Origin: an uncultured Gammaproteobacteria bacterium
GTDB lineage: Bacteria; Patescibacteriota; Patescibacteriia; Veblenbacterales; UBA10138
Direction of reading: 5' to 3'
NCBI GenBank assembly: GCA_964348825.1
Contig: CAYGDX010000002.1
Location: forward strand, 195,013 to 259,012
DNA length: 64,000 nt
Position 1 is the stretch's first letter. Each line of letters begins with the position of its first letter. Under the pieces are notes generated by a model. That model was given only the letters and a program-made list of their open reading frames with translations. It searched no databases and was not told where the DNA came from. The translations under genes were made by a program, and so were the position numbers. Below are positions 10,941 through 64,000 of the stretch, in pieces.

Positions 10941-11030
10941 AACTAAGTGGGTCGCCTATCTTTCATAAGTAAGTAGGTCACCCCTTTTACTCAGGAATAT
11001 GAGTTCACTCCGATAATAAAATGTGCTGGC
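10941..11030. repeat. Cassette-array repeat, 3' part only, fused directly to the 3' end of tRNA-Ser
   Basis: aactaagtgggtcgcctatctttcataagtaagtaggtcaccccttttactcaggaatatgagttcactccgataataaaatgtgcTGGCGG runs straight into the tRNA CCA end. Confidence 0.8.
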
Positions 11031-11114
11031 GGAGAGGGGGAGATTCGAACTCCCGATACCTTGCGGTATGCCGCCTTTCCAAGGCGGTGCACTAGGCCAC
11101 TATGCGACCTCTCC
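11027..11114 (-). tRNA. tRNA-Ser (anticodon GGA), 88 nt with a long variable arm and an encoded CCA
   Basis: Reverse complement reads GGAGAGGTCGCATAGTGGCC...CGCCTTGGAAAGGCGG...GGGAGTTCGAATCTCCCCTCTCCGCCA. Anticodon loop is TTGGAAA. Confidence 0.85.
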
Positions 11115-11227
11115 AAAAACTTTAAACTTAACAATATTAGCGTTGTTACGGTAACATATTATAAGTAAAAAATAAAGACCTGTGATTACTTGCATAACCC
11201 AGGCCTAAAAACATTTAGCTTATTTCA

Positions 11228-11560
11228 TTATTTTTTATTAAATACTAATACCTCCTGCAAACAACTATCTATCTGATAAGTATGTTCACCGGTAAACACA
11301 AAATGTTTGTTTTGATTTTTAATACGTACACCGCTAACAGTCTGATTCAGACTAAGCCTCAACTTCTCATTATGTAAATCAGATAATGATTTAATAGGGA
11401 TTTCTACTTTGCAACTATGTTTAAATATCAATACAGATACTCCAGAAGTAACTCCAGTTAAATCTGAGATTAATTTTTTTAATTCAATCTCCGTCAGTTC
11501 TGGTACACCTGATTTAGGAAATTTTGATAAATAACTTTTTTTATGTTTTTTCATAACCAA
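11228..11560 (-). CDS. Hypothetical protein (110 aa)
   Basis: ORF only; AT-rich. Confidence 0.35.
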   Translation of the reverse strand: MVMKKHKKSYLSKFPKSGVPELTEIELKKLISDLTGVTSGVSVLIFKHSCKVEIPIKSLSDLHNEKLRLSLNQTVSGVRIKNQNKHFVFTGEHTYQIDSCLQEVLVFNKK

Positions 11561-11566
11561 TTCCCT

Positions 11567-11893
11567 TTATTTGTTTTTGTTGTGATGTTTTTTTGCCATA
11601 CGGGCAATTTGTTCAAGTACCCAAGGCCCGGTCGCAGAAACACGAAAAGTATTATCTAACTCTTCCAATTTAATAAATTTGGTCATTTCCTTACTGACAC
11701 CAACATCTAAATATGTTTGTACTGTATCTTCAACCGCCCACTCCCAACTTGTTTTTAAAATTTCATCCTGATAAACCAGTATGTGATACAACCCACTTTC
11801 TGTATCTCGACGAAATGAATGTAGAGTATTTCCCAACAAACTTTTTATTTGGGTATGAGCTAACTGAAAATGTTGCTCTTCAATATATTGCAT
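11567..11893 (-). CDS. Hypothetical protein (108 aa)
   Basis: ORF only; tightly spaced with its neighbours. Confidence 0.35.
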   Translation of the reverse strand: MQYIEEQHFQLAHTQIKSLLGNTLHSFRRDTESGLYHILVYQDEILKTSWEWAVEDTVQTYLDVGVSKEMTKFIKLEELDNTFRVSATGPWVLEQIARMAKKHHNKNK

Positions 11894-11928
11894 TATTATC
11901 CTTTTTTCATTTTTTGTTTCTTAAACGA

Positions 11929-12303
11929 TTAATTATTTTTGTTATTTAAATTAAAGACGATATTTTCCACGGCGGAAGATAAACTATCCAACTCGTTTGA
12001 ATAAATCTTAGTAAAGTTATCGCCATTACCATTGGAAATTACTTTTACCTTAACGTTAGATTTACGCGAAATTCTTCTACATAGTTTAAAATGCTCCGGA
12101 CTTATTAATAAATAAAAATAAGTTTCGTTGTGTAGTTTTTTCTTTTTACTATCTGGATCCTTTATCTTTATTACTCGTTCACCACGTTTTAATTTGAAAC
12201 CAATTTTACATTTTTTTAATGCATCTTTAATCTCAAAATAAGTTTTTTTATTATAATCATCGCGTGGGAAACTACGACCGTCTAATACTTTGTCAGTATG
12301 CAA
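11929..12303 (-). CDS. Hypothetical protein (124 aa)
   Basis: ORF only. Confidence 0.35.
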   Translation of the reverse strand: MHTDKVLDGRSFPRDDYNKKTYFEIKDALKKCKIGFKLKRGERVIKIKDPDSKKKKLHNETYFYLLISPEHFKLCRRISRKSNVKVKVISNGNGDNFTKIYSNELDSLSSAVENIVFNLNNKNN

Positions 12304-55710: not shown

Positions 55711-55775
55711 TTGGGGATTGGAATTTAAATATTTTGGATTTATTTAGGATTTAGATATTCGAATTTAGGATTTTA
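55711..55775. repeat. Heptamer tract (GGATTT/TCGAATT family)
   Basis: ttggggattggaatttaaatattttggatttatttaggatttagatattcgaatttaggatttt. Confidence 0.5.
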
Positions 55776-55778
55776 ACA

Positions 55779-57128
55779 CTACCTCATCCACTCCACTGCC
55801 TCAGCTAAATTATGCACCTCAACTATCATAATTCCTTTAGGCACCTTAGCGCCTTCTCCCAGTGGCGGTAGCACGGCTTCAGTAAAACCGAGACGCGCCG
55901 CTTCGTTTAAACGTTTATCTATTGCATTCACTGGCCTTACTTCTCCACCCAAACCAACTTCACCAAAAATTACTACTTGGCGTGAGATTGATTTTTTTAA
56001 ATAAGCCGAAGCCACCGCCAAACACACAGCTAAATCAAGTGCTGGTTCACGCGATTTTAATCCGCCAACCAAATTCACATACACATCACTCCAATTTAAT
56101 TTTACACCGGCTCGTTCACCTAAAACCGCGAGGAGTACTTCTAATCTTTTATAATCAAAACCTGTGGCAGAACGTTTGGGATAATTTTGCCGTGAATGGC
56201 TCACTAAAGCTTGTACTTCAAGTAGTAGTCCGCGCGAACCCTGCATTAAGCAAGTCACCACCGCGCCGGCACCCGCATGACGCTCGGCTAAAAATAAACT
56301 CGATGGATTCGCTACTTCTTGCAAACCATTTTCCTCCATCTTAAACACTCCAACTTCGTCGGTTGAACCAAAACGATTTTTCTCAGCCCGTAAAATTCGT
56401 AAAACTCCACTGCGTTCACCTTCTAAACTTAAAACTACATCTACCAAATGCTCCACCGCTTTTGGCCCAGCCGCCTCACCTGCTTTGGTAATATGACCAA
56501 TTACCATTACTGCTACTTGATTTGATTTGGCAAACTCTATTAAAGCCGATAAAACCGCTCGCACCTGCGTTGGCGAACCAGCAGTCGCTTCTGATTCTGA
56601 GTTGTGCATAGTTTGCAAAGAATCTATCACCAATAATATTGGTTTTAAATCACGTGCCGCGGAAGTTATCGCACCAATTTCAGCTTCAGCTGTAAAATGT
56701 AAATTCTTACCCACGAGTCCTAATCGTTTTAAACGATCAGATACTTGAGTCGCCGCTTCTTCGCCTGAGGCATACAAAACTGTTTGTTGTAATTTTTCAG
56801 CGAGCGCCAAAACTAAGGTTGATTTACCCGCCCCCGGTTCGCCAGTTAATAAAATCACACCGCCCGGCGTAATACCACCACCGAGCACTCTATCTAACTC
56901 ATTCAAACCAGTAGAAAGTTTTGGCGTAGCTGTCGCCGATGAATTACCTAAAGAAACCACGGTTGCTGGAGAAGTTGAATAACTGGCGGTTGAATTTTTT
57001 TGATTAGAAATGGTAATTGATTCGGTAGATATTGTACCGAATTTACCACAAGTATTACAACGCCCCGCCCATTTTGGATACTGGGCGTCGCAATTAGAGC
57101 AAGTATACACTGTAATTGATTTAGGCAT
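55779..57128 (-). CDS. radA: DNA repair protein RadA/Sms
   Basis: N-terminal zinc finger CSNCDAQYPKWAGRCNTC, Walker A GEPGAGKST, KNRFG motif, and C-terminal Lon-protease-like domain. Start at the internal MPKSITVY. Confidence 0.9.
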   Translation of the reverse strand: MPKSITVYTCSNCDAQYPKWAGRCNTCGKFGTISTESITISNQKNSTASYSTSPATVVSLGNSSATATPKLSTGLNELDRVLGGGITPGGVILLTGEPGAGKSTLVLALAEKLQQTVLYASGEEAATQVSDRLKRLGLVGKNLHFTAEAEIGAITSAARDLKPILLVIDSLQTMHNSESEATAGSPTQVRAVLSALIEFAKSNQVAVMVIGHITKAGEAAGPKAVEHLVDVVLSLEGERSGVLRILRAEKNRFGSTDEVGVFKMEENGLQEVANPSSLFLAERHAGAGAVVTCLMQGSRGLLLEVQALVSHSRQNYPKRSATGFDYKRLEVLLAVLGERAGVKLNWSDVYVNLVGGLKSREPALDLAVCLAVASAYLKKSISRQVVIFGEVGLGGEVRPVNAIDKRLNEAARLGFTEAVLPPLGEGAKVPKGIMIVEVHNLAEAVEWMR

Positions 57129-57129
57129 T

Positions 57130-58470
57130 TTAAAAACAAGTTGAGGACATCTTTGGTTTTTCAAAGTGCCATGGTTCAGAATTTAATTTACAAAAACCTT
57201 GCGCCCGCATAGCTTGAATAAGTAATTTCATACCCCTCACTTCTTCGCAAGCTGGTTTATTTTTTTTACAATTATCTTGTGATATTACTTGCGTGCCAGC
57301 GAAACCTGCCCACAAATCAACTGCTCGTCCAGTAGTATGTGGACAACTCTTTATTCCTTCTCTTAGTATACAGGTATCATGTTTACCTGTTTTAGGATTA
57401 CAACGTTGACTCCCGGGTGGATTCTGACAATTTTCTTTAATTAATTCTATTTGTTTAACTTCACTACGATAACCAGAGGCAATAATCAATTGAATATCAT
57501 CAGCCGCTAATTTGGCGGCTACTATTCTTAAATCGCTTAATAAACTTTTATCTACAGTATAAGATTTACCATTAACAATATTACGACCTTGTGCTAATAC
57601 TGGTTGCACACCAGAAAAATCAGCTATAGTAACAGTATCTGTTTCGGCTTCATCTTCTAAATTAAACTCCACTCGACGAATATCATCTATACCTTGTAGT
57701 GGTGGGAATTCAACTAATGCTGGATTTATTAAATTAAGCAAGGTATAAGAAATCAAAGCGAGCACCAAACCAATAATGGCGCTAAAAATAGCATCATTTG
57801 AATCACTAATTCTTTCCGCATTACCAGCCGCAATAATTCTTTTAAAACCACCCCAAGTAACCATCACTACAGCAATAACCGCTAACAACCCCACAAAAAA
57901 TTTAAAAAAAACACGTATATAATTGCCTAAAAATTTAGCGTCAACCGCAATCCCCTCGCCACTAGTAATTCTAAATTCTTTACCAGCAATTGTAATACTA
58001 CCTGGAATTGTTACTTGCGGTTTAAATTTTAGCCCGGTATCTGAACTAAGTGACATTTCATCCTCACCAAATGGTACACTATCATTAATTTCTCCACACA
58101 TATCATCTTGATGTAAAGTACAACTAACTTGCGAAGCTGAACAATTAGAATTAGTAATACGAATCCAATCATCAATCCCCCCGTACAAAGAAACTAAACT
58201 ATTATAATTACATTGACTAGTAGAATTAATCATTACACATGTAGAACTACCACCACCCACATTTATACTACTATAACCAGCGGCTTGAAAAGATTGCTCA
58301 CAAATACAAGAACAAGACAGCGCCAAAACTGGCTTGGCTGAAAATAAACCCAACACGAAAAATACCAAAGCTGTAATTATTATCAAACTTTGGAATTTGG
58401 TCCGCCAGTTGGCGGATGGGATTTGTGATTTTTTAGAAATTGACATATTTAAATCCGAAATCCGAAGCAC
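57130..58470 (-). CDS. Secreted Cys-rich protein, paralog 1: N-terminal signal/TM, Cys-rich ectodomain, conserved two-helix membrane hairpin, C-terminal M15 (VanY-like, LAS) peptidase domain
   Basis: Hairpin FFKFFVGLLAVIAVVMVTWGGFKRIIAAGNAERISDSNDAIFSAIIGLVLALISYTLLNLINPAL. M15 motifs SGYRS, CPHTTGRAVD and EPWHFE. The start may be the internal MSISKK (58446). Confidence 0.7.
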   Translation of the reverse strand: MLRISDLNMSISKKSQIPSANWRTKFQSLIIITALVFFVLGLFSAKPVLALSCSCICEQSFQAAGYSSINVGGGSSTCVMINSTSQCNYNSLVSLYGGIDDWIRITNSNCSASQVSCTLHQDDMCGEINDSVPFGEDEMSLSSDTGLKFKPQVTIPGSITIAGKEFRITSGEGIAVDAKFLGNYIRVFFKFFVGLLAVIAVVMVTWGGFKRIIAAGNAERISDSNDAIFSAIIGLVLALISYTLLNLINPALVEFPPLQGIDDIRRVEFNLEDEAETDTVTIADFSGVQPVLAQGRNIVNGKSYTVDKSLLSDLRIVAAKLAADDIQLIIASGYRSEVKQIELIKENCQNPPGSQRCNPKTGKHDTCILREGIKSCPHTTGRAVDLWAGFAGTQVISQDNCKKNKPACEEVRGMKLLIQAMRAQGFCKLNSEPWHFEKPKMSSTCF

Positions 58471-58513
58471 TAAATCCGAAAATTTCGTATTTCGAATTTC
58501 GATATTCGGATTT
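58449..58513. repeat. Heptamer element (AATCCGA/TCGGATT) forming an imperfect palindrome at the 5' end of the paralog-1 gene
   Basis: aaatccgaaatccgaagcactaaatccgaaaatttcgtatttcgaatttcgatattcggattttt. Confidence 0.65.
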
Positions 58514-58524
58514 TTAATAAAATA

Positions 58525-59178
58525 TTACTTACTAATCAACTGCCTCAACTCCTCCACTGTAATCACTCCCGTATGCGTTTTTGCGCCCACAATCAAAAAT
58601 GGTGTACCATCTAGCCCAACTGCCTGACCTTCATTAAAATTTTTCTGAATTAAGGCGCGCGATTTATACTCGGTTAAACAAGATTTAAATTCAACGGTAT
58701 CTAACCCCAGCTCTACGGCTAAATTATTATAAAGTACTTCTCCTAAACTATTCTGCGCGGCAAATAATTTATCATGATACTCCCAGAATTTTCCTTGTGC
58801 TCCGGCACACTGCGCCGCTTCAGCGGCGGGTAGCGATTCGGCGTGATCGGGTAAGGGAAAATCTTTCCACACTAATTTTATTTTACCTTTATTATTCTCC
58901 ACCGCAGTTTTAAGAAGTCCCGATACTTCAGCACAATACGGGCAAGAAAAATCACTAAATTCCACAATTGTAACTTCGGCTGATTTTTCGCCTCGCACTG
59001 GATCAGCGCCAAAAATAATAACATCCTGTGGTAATTTAGTACCACTTTCTGTGATTGGATTGTCAAACACTGGTGGACGAAGTAAGTGGGTATCTGAAAT
59101 TTGTTGCCAAATAGCCAAAACACTCACTAAAATGAGTGCGAATAATAACCAAAATTGTGGGGCGCGGTAGAAAGACAC
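58525..59178 (-). CDS. DsbA-like thiol:disulfide oxidoreductase (thioredoxin fold), membrane-anchored
   Basis: N-terminal TM FWLLFALILVSVLAIW and active site CPYC in FSDFSCPYCAEV. 217 aa. Confidence 0.7.
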   Translation of the reverse strand: MSFYRAPQFWLLFALILVSVLAIWQQISDTHLLRPPVFDNPITESGTKLPQDVIIFGADPVRGEKSAEVTIVEFSDFSCPYCAEVSGLLKTAVENNKGKIKLVWKDFPLPDHAESLPAAEAAQCAGAQGKFWEYHDKLFAAQNSLGEVLYNNLAVELGLDTVEFKSCLTEYKSRALIQKNFNEGQAVGLDGTPFLIVGAKTHTGVITVEELRQLISK

Positions 59179-59190
59179 GATTAAAAAAAT

Positions 59191-59303
59191 AATGACTAAT
59201 CTCTAATTTCTAATTTCTAAAATGACTAATTACTTAATAACCAAATTAGTTATTAGGATTTGGGATTTAAAATTTTTTAGAAATTAGAAATTAGTCATTA
59301 GTG
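59191..59303. repeat. Large inverted repeat (CTAATTT family): aatgactaatctctaatttctaatttctaaaatgactaat ... ttttagaaattagaaattagtcattagtg
   Basis: Arms are reverse complements of each other and flank a 45-bp spacer. Confidence 0.7.
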
Positions 59304-59308
59304 ATTTT

Positions 59309-59353
59309 GAGAAATTGCTTCGTCGCTCGCCTTACTCGCTCCTCGCAATGACA
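59309..59353. repeat. 45-nt conserved motif gagaaattgcttcgtcgctcgccttactcgctcctcgcaatgaca (second copy; see 15605-15649)
   Basis: 41/45 identity with 15605-15649. Confidence 0.7.
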
Positions 59354-59384
59354 AACTATACGCTACCCCCTACACCCTAAAACA

Positions 59385-60668
59385 TCACTTCAACTGCACA
59401 CTTCTTAACCTTCCCGATGATCCTTCTGTAAAATACAAAAATTTAGAATCGGCTGATACTTGTAAATTAAGGGCGGTTATTTCTCTGCCTGACTCATTCA
59501 CTGGTCGTGCTAAAATTGTAGTGCCGCCTGTAGCTAAATCAATCCGCCATAAAGTATCGGGTATTTGTGCCGCCAATTCTCGACTAAATCCTACCCCATC
59601 GGGTAATTCATTTGGCACGGCGCAATAAGCAAAACCAGTGACGAGTGTACATTTATCTACCCACGTCTTTAAATTAATAACTTGCTCATGTGCACCAACC
59701 CGATCGACCGAAGCATCCACTAAATAAAGTTGTGGTTTATAATCGGTTTTATCGGAAAAAGACGAATAAAGTAGACGTGTGCCATCAGGTGACCAACGCG
59801 GCTCGAACCCACGTCCATTTATATACAACCCTTTAAAATTTTCACCATTAAACCCAATGAGTAATACTTGTTGTTGAAATAAACCGCTGGGCTCACCAGT
59901 ACGTGACAGTGCCATCACTTGATTATTAGGTGCCCATTCAACATCTACTTTATCGGCATTCTCACCCATTGGTTCAATACCAGTAAGACCTCCACCATCA
60001 CTACCAATGGTTACTAACCAGCGATCCGCTGGATTATCATCTAAAAATTTTCCGGCAATTTTAGAACTATCAGGCGACCAAGAAAATTCCGTCATTTCTC
60101 GAGGCAGTGTTACTTGTTTTTTATTTACAAAATCATAAATCACGTTCGCCCCATCAGGAAATTCCAAAATAGTTTGATTACCTTGTGGCGACCAAGTAAT
60201 GTTTGATACTCCACAATAAGAATTATTAGTTAGTGTTTTATGACTGCCGCCATTGGTAATTTCATAAAATTTACAATCATTGGGATTGTAATAACGCACG
60301 CCACCGCTACTTAAATTTGGCGCTTGAGCTACACTTGGCGTAAGAGCTGGAGCGGACGTTTCTCCACCAATAGCAATGAGTGATGGTTCTAAATTTAATT
60401 CATCAATTGGCTGGTTAACACCACCTTCGTCGCCCGGTAAATTCTGATCACCATCTGGAGGAAAATTGATTGGCGTATTATTAATATTATCTCGCCCACC
60501 AGTATTATTTGGCAGTCGGCCATCTGATACATCGTTATTTCCAATTGGCAAATTTACGTCGCCAGTAGTTGGCTTCATTGCTAAATAAAAAATCCACGAC
60601 AAAATACCTACGGCCAAAATTACTAATCCAATAATAATCAATTTGCGGCGGCTAAAGTTTTCTAACAT
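59385..60668 (-). CDS. Membrane-anchored TolB-like beta-propeller protein (PD40/WD40-like repeats)
   Basis: N-terminal TM LIIIGLVILAVGILSWIFYLA. Repeated W(S/A)P(D/Q)G motifs: ITWSPQGNQ, FSWSPDSSK, VEWAPNNQ, PRWSPDGTR. Confidence 0.6.
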   Translation of the reverse strand: MLENFSRRKLIIIGLVILAVGILSWIFYLAMKPTTGDVNLPIGNNDVSDGRLPNNTGGRDNINNTPINFPPDGDQNLPGDEGGVNQPIDELNLEPSLIAIGGETSAPALTPSVAQAPNLSSGGVRYYNPNDCKFYEITNGGSHKTLTNNSYCGVSNITWSPQGNQTILEFPDGANVIYDFVNKKQVTLPREMTEFSWSPDSSKIAGKFLDDNPADRWLVTIGSDGGGLTGIEPMGENADKVDVEWAPNNQVMALSRTGEPSGLFQQQVLLIGFNGENFKGLYINGRGFEPRWSPDGTRLLYSSFSDKTDYKPQLYLVDASVDRVGAHEQVINLKTWVDKCTLVTGFAYCAVPNELPDGVGFSRELAAQIPDTLWRIDLATGGTTILARPVNESGREITALNLQVSADSKFLYFTEGSSGRLRSVQLK

Positions 60669-60773
60669 ATATTAATTATAACATATTTTAAGCTTCGCCA
60701 CTAGTGTATATAAAAACAAAAACCAAGTGTAAGGCGCACTCGGTTTTAAATGGATAAATATTAAATTATTAAT

Positions 60774-62456
60774 TTATCTATCTTTAAATCCATTTTCTCT
60801 TGTCAAATACAAGCCACAATTCAATAATTTGGTCATATTACCAGAATCGTCATATGGATTTAAAAGTTGATTTTCTGTTATATCTGCAAATTTTAAATCA
60901 TCTGGTTTGTCGCTATTACTTTGAATTATAGGTTTAACATTTTGACTACCACAAGTTGAGGCGTCAATAGCATACCAATCATCTGCCCCCTTACCTTCTA
61001 CCTCAACCTTTAACATCATACCCTTAAAACCAGTACTACAATAACTGGGTTTAAATTCTTCACCAACACCAACTCCTTGGCCACGATAACAACCACCTAT
61101 TGTATAGCTACCCTTACCTTCTACATCCAAATTTTGTCCTTTACCAGAAATTCCCGGACTAGACAGATAACAATGTGATGTACTATAAGAACCATCATTA
61201 CAAATATAACTCATAGCCACATAATTAACTTCTACCCCGCCAATCTTCCCTTGTGCTAAGAACTTCTTACATTCATACCCCGAACCTTCTTCTTTGGGGA
61301 AACAACCACCATTACCGCTCATACATTCCTGACCAACACACTGGGTGCCATTTAACACTAAATTAACACCACAAGTATCTTCAGTTGGCCTAGCTGTATT
61401 AGGAGAATAAAGTGTTGTTTGTATTGAGGCCCCATCTTTCTCCTCCCACCAACCAGCTTCATAATTTCTCTTATCTTGTTCATAAGTTGGACAAAGTGCG
61501 CCGTAAGATACTGGTTTAACTTTTTCCATTAATAATAAATTATTCTCTACTAACTTTGGATTTAATAAATTAAGTAAGGTATAAGAAATTAAAGCCAGTA
61601 CCAAACCAATTATCGCTCCAAAAATGGCGTCATTAGAATCACTAATTCTTTCCTCATTGCCAGCGGCGATTATTCTTTTAAAACCACCCCACATTACCAT
61701 TACTACTGCTGATACTGCTAACATTCCTATAAAAAATTTAGCAAATTGTTGGATATAACCTGGGAAGCCATTTTTAATAGCCGGCTGACATTTGCCTAAT
61801 TTCTGATCAGTACAAATATTTTCATCACTACTACAATCAACTGAATTACCGTTATTATCTAATTCAACACAAGCCTTGGTTGTTACGCCAGGAATACCAA
61901 TTTGTAGTGGCACCGTTGGTGCTATTGCAAAACATCGGGCTGTTTTATATGTTCCAATATCTTCACAAACTTCCAAACTCCATTCATCTTCTAATCCATT
62001 ATTTTTTAATTTATAAGCCTCACTTCTGCCCCACATACCCGAACCATTTTCACAAGGTTTTTGCAACCAACATCTTTCTTGCATCAAAATTGCCAGATTG
62101 TTTGGTTTTTGATTTTTTTCATATTCTAAATTTCTTTTTGTTTCATCAGCTGGAACTGTATTAAAACCACCTGAGGTACCAGTTACATTACCACATTGAT
62201 ATTCTACCTGAGTGGTAGATTGATTAACTTTTGAACAACAAACTTTTCCATTAACCTCTGGTAAGGCACAATTACAACTAACTTGGCTATTATTATATCC
62301 ACATTTATCAGAAAAACAAGCGCTTTGTGTGGCAGTAAAACCATCACCAATCGCCTGACAAGCACTATCATATTCAGCGGCTAAAACATTTTGTGGTAAA
62401 ACAAAAATTATAATCAAAATTATTTTAACTAAAAAAAGTGCGGCGATTTTACTCAT
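60774..62456 (-). CDS. Secreted Cys-rich protein, paralog 2 (560 aa): signal peptide, Cys-rich domain, conserved two-helix membrane hairpin, second Cys-rich domain
   Basis: Hairpin FAKFFIGMLAVSAVVMVMWGGFKRIIAAGNEERISDSNDAIFGAIIGLVLALISYTLLNLLNPKL preceded by the conserved GIPGVT...GFPGYIQ block. Confidence 0.65.
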   Translation of the reverse strand: MSKIAALFLVKIILIIIFVLPQNVLAAEYDSACQAIGDGFTATQSACFSDKCGYNNSQVSCNCALPEVNGKVCCSKVNQSTTQVEYQCGNVTGTSGGFNTVPADETKRNLEYEKNQKPNNLAILMQERCWLQKPCENGSGMWGRSEAYKLKNNGLEDEWSLEVCEDIGTYKTARCFAIAPTVPLQIGIPGVTTKACVELDNNGNSVDCSSDENICTDQKLGKCQPAIKNGFPGYIQQFAKFFIGMLAVSAVVMVMWGGFKRIIAAGNEERISDSNDAIFGAIIGLVLALISYTLLNLLNPKLVENNLLLMEKVKPVSYGALCPTYEQDKRNYEAGWWEEKDGASIQTTLYSPNTARPTEDTCGVNLVLNGTQCVGQECMSGNGGCFPKEEGSGYECKKFLAQGKIGGVEVNYVAMSYICNDGSYSTSHCYLSSPGISGKGQNLDVEGKGSYTIGGCYRGQGVGVGEEFKPSYCSTGFKGMMLKVEVEGKGADDWYAIDASTCGSQNVKPIIQSNSDKPDDLKFADITENQLLNPYDDSGNMTKLLNCGLYLTRENGFKDR

Positions 62457-62465
62457 AATAAAAAA

Positions 62466-64000
62466 TTATAAATCCAAATCTGGTTCACACGACCAACGTT
62501 GATTTAAATTCCATTCGGCCCGACAGCCCATTTTACATAAATCGTAATAACAAAAGGGGAATTCTAATCCTGCCAACTCGCCATCTACATCCTCAAAATC
62601 ACCACAATCATTTGGAGCGGTAAAAGTTTTGTCACCAAAAGTACCACCCTGACAAACAGTATTTTTAAGTGTATTTGACATATAAACACACCTATCATCA
62701 TCTGACAATAGTCCGCCACTTGTACTAGCAACTGCTAATGCGGCGCTACCTGCAACCGTACCTCCATACCCAAGAGGAAAACTAACTACCAAAGCTGGTA
62801 TTATACCTATACCACCAGAAGCGACAGTTATTATAGCGGTGCTTAAACCCACACCTAAAATTGTTACTGCCGTACCAAAATTACTGGTTTCCATCCATAA
62901 ACACTGACCATTTTTGTCACTATAATTAGCGCAAGCTGAAGTAAAAATGTCATGACTATCACTAGCACTACCATGTATACCCTTAACATTGTCATCAGTT
63001 ATATTAGCGCAAGCTGCCCATGAGTTGGTACATTTATATTCAACATTGCCCGCACTATAATTAACTGGGTAACATCCAGCACCTTCGGGAAATCCTAAGG
63101 TCGGTGAGCAACTTGCCCCCTTACAACTTTTACCATCAAAATTATTCCATTCGCCGCAAGAAATATGTTTACTTGGATCATTTGGTAATGGGTCAGGACA
63201 CCAATCACCCAAACTTTGCGTTCTTACTCTATCTATTTGCACACCTGAATTTTCAATTAATTTTGGATTTATTAAATTAAGTAAAGTATAAGAAATTAAA
63301 GCGAGTACTAAACCAATTATAGCTCCAAAAATTGCTTCATTTGAATCACTAATTCTTTCCGCATTACCCGCCGCAATAATTCTTTTAAAACCACCCCACA
63401 TTACCATTACTACTGCTGATACTGCTAACATTCCTATAAAAAACTTAGCGAATTTTTGTATGTAACCTGGAAAACCGTCATTAATGGCTGATTTGCAAGT
63501 ACCTAATTGTTTATTAACACAGTCCTCATCTGTGTTACAAGACTCTGCCTTACCACTATAATTATATTGCGAACAAACTTTTTCAGTTACTCCGGGGATG
63601 CCAATTTGCAAAGCAATTGGTTGTGTGGCAATCAGGCATCTCCTAGTTTCTACCCCACCTTCTCCACCCAATGGCTTACAATCTGGAGAATCTTCTTTAC
63701 TAGCCCATTTACCCCTTTGATCATTTTCACAAGCTGTTTGTGTCCAACATTTATCAAATTGTAAAAGAGATGGATCAATAGCTTCGGGATCAGAATTTCC
63801 ACAACTATTATCAGCAAAATATTGACATTTTTTTTCCCATGCATCTTCCCTAATTTTACCCCTTGCATTCTGGTTATCACACTCACTCTTTGTTATATTC
63901 TCCTGACAAGCAGGTGCAGTAAATAAACGATCATCAAAACACCTACACGATCCTGCCCAAGTAGTATTCACAATTAAAAAATTTAATAAAACAAAAACTA
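62466..64000 (-). CDS. Secreted Cys-rich protein, paralog 3; partial, with the 5' end beyond the window
   Basis: Same hairpin FAKFFIGMLAVSAVVMVMWGGFKRIIAAGNAERISDSNEAIFGAIIGLVLALISYTLLNLINPKL. The reading frame stays open to the window edge and encodes a signal-peptide-like VFVLLNFLIVNTTWAG upstream of the GTG at 63971. Confidence 0.6.
   Translation of the reverse strand, partial: VFVLLNFLIVNTTWAGSCRCFDDRLFTAPACQENITKSECDNQNARGKIREDAWEKKCQYFADNSCGNSDPEAIDPSLLQFDKCWTQTACENDQRGKWASKEDSPDCKPLGGEGGVETRRCLIATQPIALQIGIPGVTEKVCSQYNYSGKAESCNTDEDCVNKQLGTCKSAINDGFPGYIQKFAKFFIGMLAVSAVVMVMWGGFKRIIAAGNAERISDSNEAIFGAIIGLVLALISYTLLNLINPKLIENSGVQIDRVRTQSLGDWCPDPLPNDPSKHISCGEWNNFDGKSCKGASCSPTLGFPEGAGCYPVNYSAGNVEYKCTNSWAACANITDDNVKGIHGSASDSHDIFTSACANYSDKNGQCLWMETSNFGTAVTILGVGLSTAIITVASGGIGIIPALVVSFPLGYGGTVAGSAALAVASTSGGLLSDDDRCVYMSNTLKNTVCQGGTFGDKTFTAPNDCGDFEDVDGELAGLEFPFCYYDLCKMGCRAEWNLNQRWSCEPDLDL

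Follow-up and report, generated by a model that had tools for sequence, protein, structure and literature searches.

Three large genes at the end of a 64,000-nucleotide (nt) stretch of DNA from an uncultured, ultrasmall bacterium (NCBI GenBank assembly GCA_964348825.1, contig CAYGDX010000002.1, positions 195,013 to 259,012 of the forward strand; GTDB lineage Patescibacteriota, Veblenbacterales, UBA10138) belong to a type IV secretion system (T4SS) locus and encode proteins, designated P1, P2, and P3, that resemble each other mainly in a short segment for a membrane hairpin. Why did the DNA of this segment stay similar while the DNA around it did not? The complete stretch is called the "window" in the following, its source the "window genome," and other genomes carry "L" numbers. 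The likeness at the DNA level is real and comprises a 201-nt direct-repeat "module" in three minus-strand genes. A combination of two processes is the probable explanation: ancient paralogs are kept under purifying selection and experience episodic interlocus gene conversion of the hairpin, with replacement of their outer domains, the "ectodomains."

The sequence-only reading, made from the letters of the window, had placed the three segments within about 20 nt of the in-register module coordinates and had estimated an identity of 85 to 95%, which was correct in being high and slightly optimistic in its value, 81 to 90% being measured over the 201 nt. A 37-mer cited there is present without mismatch in P2 and P3, at plus-strand positions 61700 and 63407. 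Its statement that the flanks are unrelated holds for P1 in comparison to the other two proteins and for all C-terminal ectodomains, with local alignment scores at noise, but not for the 105 amino acids (aa) directly N-terminal of the module, which are homologous in P2 and P3 with 41% aa identity and only about 55 to 65% identity at the DNA level. In the module itself, P1 and P2 share 81% of the nucleotides and 87% of the aa (synonymous divergence [dS] of 0.93 with the Nei-Gojobori method, NG86), P1 and P3 share 84% and 87% (dS 0.62), and P2 and P3 share 90% and 94% (dS 0.48), and the nonsynonymous divergence (dN) among the paralogs is 0.03 to 0.09. BLASTN aligned P2 with P3 at 89.6% over 222 nt and P1 with P3 at 85.3% over 197 nt. 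Uninterrupted identity extends over at most 65 nt in P2-P3 and 32 nt in P1-P3. No module copies beyond the three full-length genes were found by tblastn in the window, and among the homolog matches, only three module proteins mapped to the 353-kb contig. Assembly collapse was rejected as the source of the likeness: the population is represented by two independent assemblies, that of the window and L001, a second one of this genome, which align collinearly and disagree at a single base in 11.5 kb, and 10 to 19% of the sites differ among the copies.

Synonymous sites allow this likeness to be separated from that of the encoded proteins. The sequence-only reading had proposed that equal synonymous divergence of hairpin and flanks would indicate purifying selection on the protein alone. 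In P2-P3, the only window pair with a homologous flank, the proportion of synonymous differences (pS) was 0.36 in the module and 0.76, which is saturated, in the adjacent N-proximal ectodomain. This supports homogenization at the DNA level. Codon identity at identical residues was 0.75 in the P2-P3 module versus 0.51 in its homologous flank. For all pairs, it reached 0.62 to 0.75 in the module versus 0.43 expected from the codon usage of the window (P ≤ 0.002), with the flanks at expectation. When the proteins were re-coded in 20,000 simulations with codons drawn according to the codon usage of the window, the observed nucleotide identity was reached once for P1-P2 and never for P1-P3 or P2-P3; neither the 181 identical nucleotides of 201 nor the 65-nt run of P2-P3 ever appeared, the maximum run under this null model being 41 nt.

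Two controls set the baseline. Modules of different genomes with 60 to 80% aa identity displayed a codon identity of about 0.4. The orthologous P3-type module of the window genome and the related genome L002 had a dS of 0.54, which agrees with the genomic background of 0.43 to 0.57 as given by RadA (0.48), VirB4 (0.44), and PrgI (0.57), with radA serving as control for vertical descent and background dS. This indicates that the module does not possess an intrinsically low synonymous rate. The informative sites within the module form a mosaic, with P2 equal to P3 at nt 4 to 54 and P1 equal to P3 at nt 75 to 111. These sites are clustered (runs test, P = 0.001), so that the part for the first transmembrane helix is common to P2 and P3 and the loop part to P1 and P3, which indicates more than one exchange. 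The within-genome dS of 0.5 to 0.9 is comparable to or above that between the window genome and L002; the last exchange is therefore as old as the split of these two and not recent.

The same signature is present in other genomes. In L005, a Veblenbacteria metagenome-assembled genome (MAG; GCA_037439965.1), the modules of the P3-type and P1-type genes are 96% identical over about 190 nt (dS 0.10); this tract contains 2 to 3 mismatches, the similarity ends abruptly at both of its edges, and there is no relationship between the ectodomains. In genomes with two or more copies, the nearest nucleotide neighbor of a module was located within its own genome for 19 of the 30 modules, and the three window modules are each other's nearest neighbors. 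Paralogs with a homologous N-terminal ectodomain had a pS in module and flank, respectively, of 0.48 and 0.76 in L022, 0.39 and 0.68 in L037, 0.31 and 0.47 in L039, and 0.23 and 0.59 in L040, so that five genomes including the window genome exhibit a step from the module to a higher pS in the flank. Paralogs of the same genome also have private residues in common. Concerted evolution by gene conversion, one of the two processes suggested by the sequence-only reading, is thus supported by the lower pS of the module, the codon identity above expectation, the four additional genomes, and the tract in L005. A scan of metagenome contigs with degenerate DNA for the window-type motif WGGFKRIIAAGN[AE]ERISDSN gave 0 matches.

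The ectodomains have another history. The homologs of P1 to P3 fall into three ortholog groups, "A" (P2-like), "B" (P3-like), and "C" (P1-like, carrying a VanY domain), with orthologs in Veblen-, Kerfeld-, and Uhrbacteria and others and with ectodomains that cannot be aligned between the groups. P1, P2, and P3 are ancient paralogs. The hairpin occupies the same position in every A, B, and C ortholog of every genome examined, which indicates that this architecture is older than the divergence of these lineages of the candidate phyla radiation (CPR). The locus order VirB4, two small genes, "slot 1" with an A or B gene, the PD40 gene, the DsbA gene, "slot 2" with a C gene, and radA is kept in L002, in L004 to L007, and in 35 GTDB species representatives, including Veblen-, Uhr-, Falkow-, and Komeilibacteria; only the window genome among those compared has both B and A in slot 1. 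In genomes without a group A gene, a DUF6922 gene (79 to 97 aa; L002 11808-12101, L006 2984-3223) was observed between slot 1 and PD40, which is the position of P2 here.

Between the window genome and L002, the aa identity is 98% for VirB4, 94% for RadA, and 89% for the PD40 protein. At the nucleotide level, the backbone is 83 to 91% identical and the B and C ectodomains are 54 to 66% identical, with the modules forming islands of 80 to 89%. Custom neighbor-joining bootstraps grouped the window genome with L002 in the RadA tree (100%) and in the group C module tree (99%). In the tree of the P1 peptidase ectodomain, this grouping received 0%, and the window genome was placed with L009 (92%) and with L009 plus L010 (94%); in the tree of the P3 C-terminal ectodomain, it was placed with L005 and L043 (97%) and again with L002 in 0%. 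The slot 1 modules joined the A and B modules of the window genome with the B module of L002 (99%) and the B module of L043 with the A modules of L004 and L007 (92%), irrespective of the A or B type, and the type A modules were monophyletic in 0%. Since the module trees follow the genome and the trees of the P1 and P3 C-terminal ectodomains point to distant genomes, the ectodomains should have been exchanged with a breakpoint near the module. The N-distal Cys domain of P2 is homologous (E 7e-14) to the N terminus of a group C protein in a Kerfeldbacteria MAG and thus appears to have moved between paralog groups. Judged from these sequences, each gene seems to be a chimera of a lineage-specific hairpin and outer domains from a wider pool. 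L043 (type B) and L004/L007 (type A) were also considered as carriers of one module DNA with alternative C-terminal ectodomains; this was rejected because they are too distant, with 72 to 75% identity in the module DNA and 68 to 75% aa identity in the PD40 protein.

The hairpin is predicted to be a member of the VirB2-like T4SS pilin family by its profile, its topology, and the gene neighborhood. PF18895 (T4SS_pilin, gathering score 26.6 bits) matched across the module with 28.9 bits in the whole P1 protein and, just under the cutoff as whole proteins, with 25.9 bits in P2 and 25.4 bits in P3. It matched all 30 of 30 related modules, one of which was also weakly similar to TrbC (PF04956). Each module has two Kyte-Doolittle hydrophobic segments with a charged loop, WGGFKRIIAAGNAERISDSN ("KR...ERISDSN"), and all three proteins possess a hydrophobic N-terminal leader. 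The AlphaFold2 model of P1, based on an alignment of nine group C proteins, placed helices at residues 170 to 205 and 210 to 240 with a moderate predicted local distance difference test score (pLDDT) of about 62 to 71; with an overall pLDDT of 55 and an uninterpretable N-terminal ectodomain, only the hairpin and the peptidase domain of this model are usable. A small pilin of about 70 to 130 aa in its mature form would consist essentially of the hairpin; P1, P2, and P3 comprise 438, 560, and 528 aa with ectodomains of 150 to 260 aa on each side. A module profile gave nothing meaningful against PDB sequences (best E 0.23), so that homology to VirB2 is based on Pfam and the topology only. The 76-aa module alone as protein query led to 3 word-sharing candidates and no matches, probably because the query is short and hydrophobic.

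Outside the module, the paralogs contain 16, 28, and 30 Cys residues, all even numbers, and none is located within it. Both ectodomains should face outward, as suggested by the signal peptide, the two transmembrane helices, the cysteines, and the adjacent DsbA gene, and the Cys-rich ectodomains may have their partner in the DsbA-like protein. Within the C-terminal ectodomain of P3 (residues 392 to 433; 62754-62879, minus strand), a further hydrophobic stretch rich in Gly and Ala, AVTILGVGLSTAIITVASGGIGIIPALVVSFPLGYGG, could represent one or two more membrane segments or a glycine zipper; if membrane spanning, it would change the topology of the P3 C terminus. In L029, another CPR MAG, three T4SS_pilin hairpins with 37 to 48% aa identity are arranged in tandem in a single open reading frame (ORF; 11027-12010) as a fused multi-pilin architecture.

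Several other explanations have to be weighed. If the hairpin was just the most constrained part of old paralogs, the likeness of the DNA would result from protein identity combined with AT-biased codons. Such plain purifying selection agrees with the very low dN of the module, with the 72 to 77% nucleotide identity that AT-rich codon usage alone generates (null means of 144 to 154 of 201 nt), and with the paralog modules of L006, which are 93% identical in aa at saturated synonymous sites (pS 0.63). It is nevertheless improbable as the sole explanation and has already been largely refuted by the codon identity, the pS step of P2-P3, and the re-coding simulations: the codon-usage null is surpassed by the identity of every pair (P ≤ 5e-5) and by the run lengths, the step between module and flank exists in five genomes and is accompanied by the low dS in L005, and private residues as well as module trees follow the genome instead of the ortholog group. 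Even less probable, to a degree that it hardly needs consideration, is a recent segmental duplication or domain insertion that copied the hairpin segment into three preexisting unrelated genes. This would account for a likeness confined to about 200 nt between unrelated flanks, but the hairpin was already at the same position in all A, B, and C orthologs examined.

The sequence-only reading had also proposed that the conserved segment may serve as a homology anchor for the shuffling of ectodomains as a surface-variation mechanism. On an evolutionary time scale, this idea has real albeit indirect support from the incongruence of the P1 and P3 C-terminal ectodomains and from the transfer of the N-distal domain. 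As a rapid, programmed switch, with the hairpin as a dedicated high-frequency anchor that swaps ectodomains within the population in the manner of Neisseria pilE/pilS, it is not supported and there is little chance that it applies. Conserved 200-nt direct repeats do flank variable ectodomain DNA, the ectodomain histories disagree with those of module and genome, slot 1 is of type A or B in related genomes with both here, an N-distal domain was exchanged between groups, and synteny with the locus extends to radA and recG, two genes of recombination. However, all three copies are full-length with signal peptides, with no silent or partial copies in the window; the module dS of 0.5 to 0.9 within the genome dates the last exchange back to the split from L002; a single base in 11.5 kb distinguishes the two assemblies of the population; an invertase, a recombinase, or a reverse transcriptase was not seen in the locus; and the linkage to radA and recG is conserved housekeeping synteny. 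A diversity-generating retroelement, considered due to 23S_rRNA_IVP/bAvd-like genes in the locus, was rejected because neither a reverse transcriptase nor a template/variable repeat pair was seen. A further possibility, to be regarded as tentative, is that the hairpin is a portable, lineage-specific adapter with its DNA acting as a recombination anchor. Extracytoplasmic domains of any kind, such as an adhesin-like Cys-rich module or a cell-wall peptidase, would be acquired from other CPR lineages by recombination at the hairpin and attached to the T4SS or pilus of the recipient, and conversion would then rematch the hairpin to the machinery present there.

The combination of purifying selection and episodic conversion would operate as follows. 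Each protein would be composed of a signal peptide, the two-helix membrane hairpin, and large disulfide-rich extracytoplasmic domains at both hairpin ends. Very strong purifying selection on the hairpin protein (dN 0.03 to 0.09) may be the first process keeping the segments alike. The second may be an episodic, short-tract, non-reciprocal exchange of the RecA type between direct repeats 1.7 to 5.5 kb apart, for the initiation of which perfect runs of 32 to 65 nt would still be available; in the window, these exchanges should be old, roughly of the age of the split from the nearest sequenced relative. The ectodomains escape homogenization and are hypervariable; in P1 and P3, the C-terminal ones at the least were probably replaced by divergent alleles, with breakpoints located at the hairpin or close to it. 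Conversion may be favored or its products fixed since every hairpin would have to fit the same VirB3/VirB4/VirB6 machinery or copolymerize in a pilus-like polymer, leaving the outer domains free to diversify, presumably under selection by the interaction with the host.

Some observations weigh against this explanation or limit it. The window modules were not recently converted (dS 0.48 to 0.93), and part of their likeness is plain purifying selection. With 67 codons per module, the error of dS is large (standard error of pS about 0.07), and misalignment may inflate pS in highly diverged flanks. The cleanest tract, that in L005, comes from a single MAG assembly. Modules cluster by ortholog and not by genome in L004/L007 and L006/L012; this pairing in the sister genomes L006 and L012 indicates that conversion is episodic or sporadic. 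The incongruence of the ectodomains could in principle also result from import of whole genes followed by conversion of the hairpin, the data fitting either route. Moreover, the co-assembly rationale is conjectural, formation of a pilus by these proteins is only predicted, and their size is atypical for pilins.

For P1, the model allows a functional prediction of the C-terminal domain, which is modeled with confidence and is a putative LAS/M15 (VanY-type) peptidoglycan peptidase as judged by profile, residues, and fold. The VanY Pfam profile scored 25.3 bits at a cutoff of 25, and the zinc-ligand pattern H-x6-D...H (H370, D377, and H427) is invariant in the 9 group C proteins. With the modeled domain as query, Foldseek returned Ply500 (E 7e-4), LysB4, VanY, and VanX, with Ply500 and LysB4 being endolysin L-alanoyl-D-glutamate peptidase domains. 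P1 may thus supply a cell-wall peptidase activity to the T4SS apparatus.

How does this system relate to known ones? The T4SS of Patescibacteria is the only T4SS reported as essential for growth of its owner on a host bacterium, with multiple VirB2-like "pilins" left unexplained (PMC12102498, PMC12857230); an essential pilin array exists in Southlakia epibionticum (Wang et al. 2023, as summarized in PMC12857230). VirB2-like arrays near virB4 in Patescibacteria have an average whole-protein identity of 25% within the arrays and a suggested role in host adaptation (Quinonero-Coronel et al. 2025, PMC12102498). The locus studied here agrees with these arrays in PF18895, which was among the search profiles of that study, and in the linkage of a chromosomal T4SS to VirB4 and PrgI. 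It differs from them because the accessible portion of that text treats divergence of whole proteins only, does not mention gene conversion, and describes neither hairpin-limited DNA homogenization nor chimeric ectodomain histories (PMC12102498). Moreover, the "pilins" here are multidomain proteins of 438 to 560 aa, one of them with a peptidoglycan peptidase.

The Bartonella Trw T4SS, with tandemly amplified trwL (VirB2) and trwJ genes, has reportedly been described by Nystedt and coworkers in 2008 (Mol Biol Evol 25:287; listed as reference 13 in PMC3483213) as being under "diversifying selection and concerted evolution." Both cases combine T4SS pilin paralogs in one locus, homogenizing recombination, and surface diversification, which was read as host-specific adhesion in Bartonella. 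In the diderm Bartonella, small genes were recently duplicated in tandem and as a whole, whereas the paralogs of the window are ancient, non-tandem, and multidomain, with conversion limited to the membrane hairpin and ectodomains of unrelated folds with separate phylogenies. In the pilE/pilS system of Neisseria and msp2 of Anaplasma, silent donor cassettes serve a high-frequency, programmed conversion of the variable part. There, too, conserved segments provide the homology for non-reciprocal transfer beside variable surface-exposed segments, but in the present locus conversion acts on the conserved part, each copy is a gene of the expressed type, and exchanges occur rarely.

Monoderm T4SSs have cell-wall hydrolases such as PrgK, TcpG, and VirB1-like proteins, as cited in PMC12102498 (references 73 to 76 therein). 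Like these, P1 is encoded in a T4SS locus and has a predicted peptidoglycan-hydrolase domain with a membrane anchor. It differs in the type of the predicted enzyme, a VanY/M15 LAS peptidase and not a lytic transglycosylase, CHAP, or muramidase domain, and in its anchor, a pilin-type hairpin common to two non-enzymatic paralogs.

New here are the restriction of conversion to the membrane hairpin of large multidomain pilin fusions, its recurrence across several CPR classes, and histories of module and ectodomains that are demonstrably chimeric. For one widespread clade or more, this would reduce the pilin fold to a small homogenized membrane adapter inside large variable surface proteins, which evolves in concert within a genome, and the outer domains would be exchanged among lineages. 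This predicts that the paralogs use a common assembly interface and that the ectodomains carry host specificity or attack the cell wall. Whole-protein identities and single-gene trees of these "pilins" should be used with caution because they blend segments of different history. If the tentative reading of the hairpin as adapter and anchor was true, the locus would be a modular system for surface display and host-range variation in episymbiotic bacteria.

Table 1. Positions of the three paralogs, their hairpin modules, and adjacent genes in the window
Feature	Position	Strand	Domain order or remark	Basis
radA	55779..57128	minus	Conserved downstream neighbor	
P1 (group C), 438 aa	57130..58446 (ORF 57130-58470)	minus	Signal peptide, Cys-rich N-ectodomain, pilin hairpin, C-terminal VanY/M15 (LAS) peptidase ectodomain	ORF list; annotated start from P0020 and L001 15607-16923
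P1 VanY/M15 peptidoglycan-peptidase domain (predicted)	57163..57555	minus		Pfam, conserved residues, Foldseek
P1 hairpin module	57709..57909	minus	67 codons	In-register alignment, AlphaFold2 helices, hydrophobic segments
DsbA-like thiol:disulfide oxidoreductase	58525..59178	minus	Syntenic in related loci	Pfam Thioredoxin_4 and DSBA
PD40/beta-propeller protein	59385..60668	minus	N-terminal transmembrane segment	Pfam PD40
P2 (group A), 560 aa	60774..62456	minus	Signal peptide, N-distal Cys domain, N-proximal domain shared with group B, hairpin, group A C-ectodomain	ORF list, Pfam, homolog search
P2 hairpin module	61545..61745	minus		In-register alignment
P3 (group B)	62466..64000	minus	Runs past window end; full protein of 528 aa with signal peptide	P0009
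P3 hairpin module	63252..63452	minus	Isolated segment, 30.7 bits against PF18895	In-register alignment

The genes for DsbA and the PD40 propeller stand between P1 and P2, and the PD40 gene has the same neighbors in the 35 GTDB loci. The listed P3 ORF (GTG at 63971, 501 aa) is a truncation at the edge of the window: the reading frame is open to 64000, and the true start, with signal peptide in the deposited copy P0009, is located 27 codons earlier than the listed one and 81 nt past base 64000. The sequence past the window end was read from L001. In the order of decreasing distance upstream of P3, this sequence contains genes for two large proteins without a Pfam match, a 23S_rRNA_IVP gene, genes for PrgI/VirB3 and a split VirB4, and those for two small membrane proteins. 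PrgI (41 bits) and the split VirB4 (a TraC-like N domain and P-loop_TraG, 103.6 bits) are encoded 1.6 to 5 kb upstream of P3, and one small gene (189 aa) is probably VirB8-like. This synteny of T4SS and pilin genes is also present in L002 and L004 to L007, and the locus is a chromosomal, monoderm-type T4SS of Patescibacteria as in Quinonero-Coronel et al. 2025. The small membrane protein directly upstream of P3 (L001 9505-9939) is 33% identical to its L002 counterpart, and its neighbor, the probable VirB8-like protein of 189 aa, is 93% identical, which indicates that the hypervariable zone begins one gene before P3.

About 5 kb past the window end, the window genome and L002 have in common a 597-nt block (L001 4553-5149; about 3954-4550 in L002) with 100% identity within a backbone of 83 to 91% identity and a genomic dS of about 0.5. 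It reaches from the end of the gene for an 819-aa protein across the 23S_rRNA_IVP gene, which encodes a four-helix bundle, into the first part of prgI; this suggests that the IVP gene was recently transferred or is mobile. L002 has three further IVP-like genes inserted in the same locus, and the 64-kb window has none. Finally, the two spacers that enclose dsbA and the one downstream of radA are filled with short repeats of the AAATCC/GGATTT type and near-palindromes with arms of 31 to 32 nt, at most 91% complementary (58448-58513, 59183-59307, and 55711-55741); the repeats may be terminators or a common regulatory motif.

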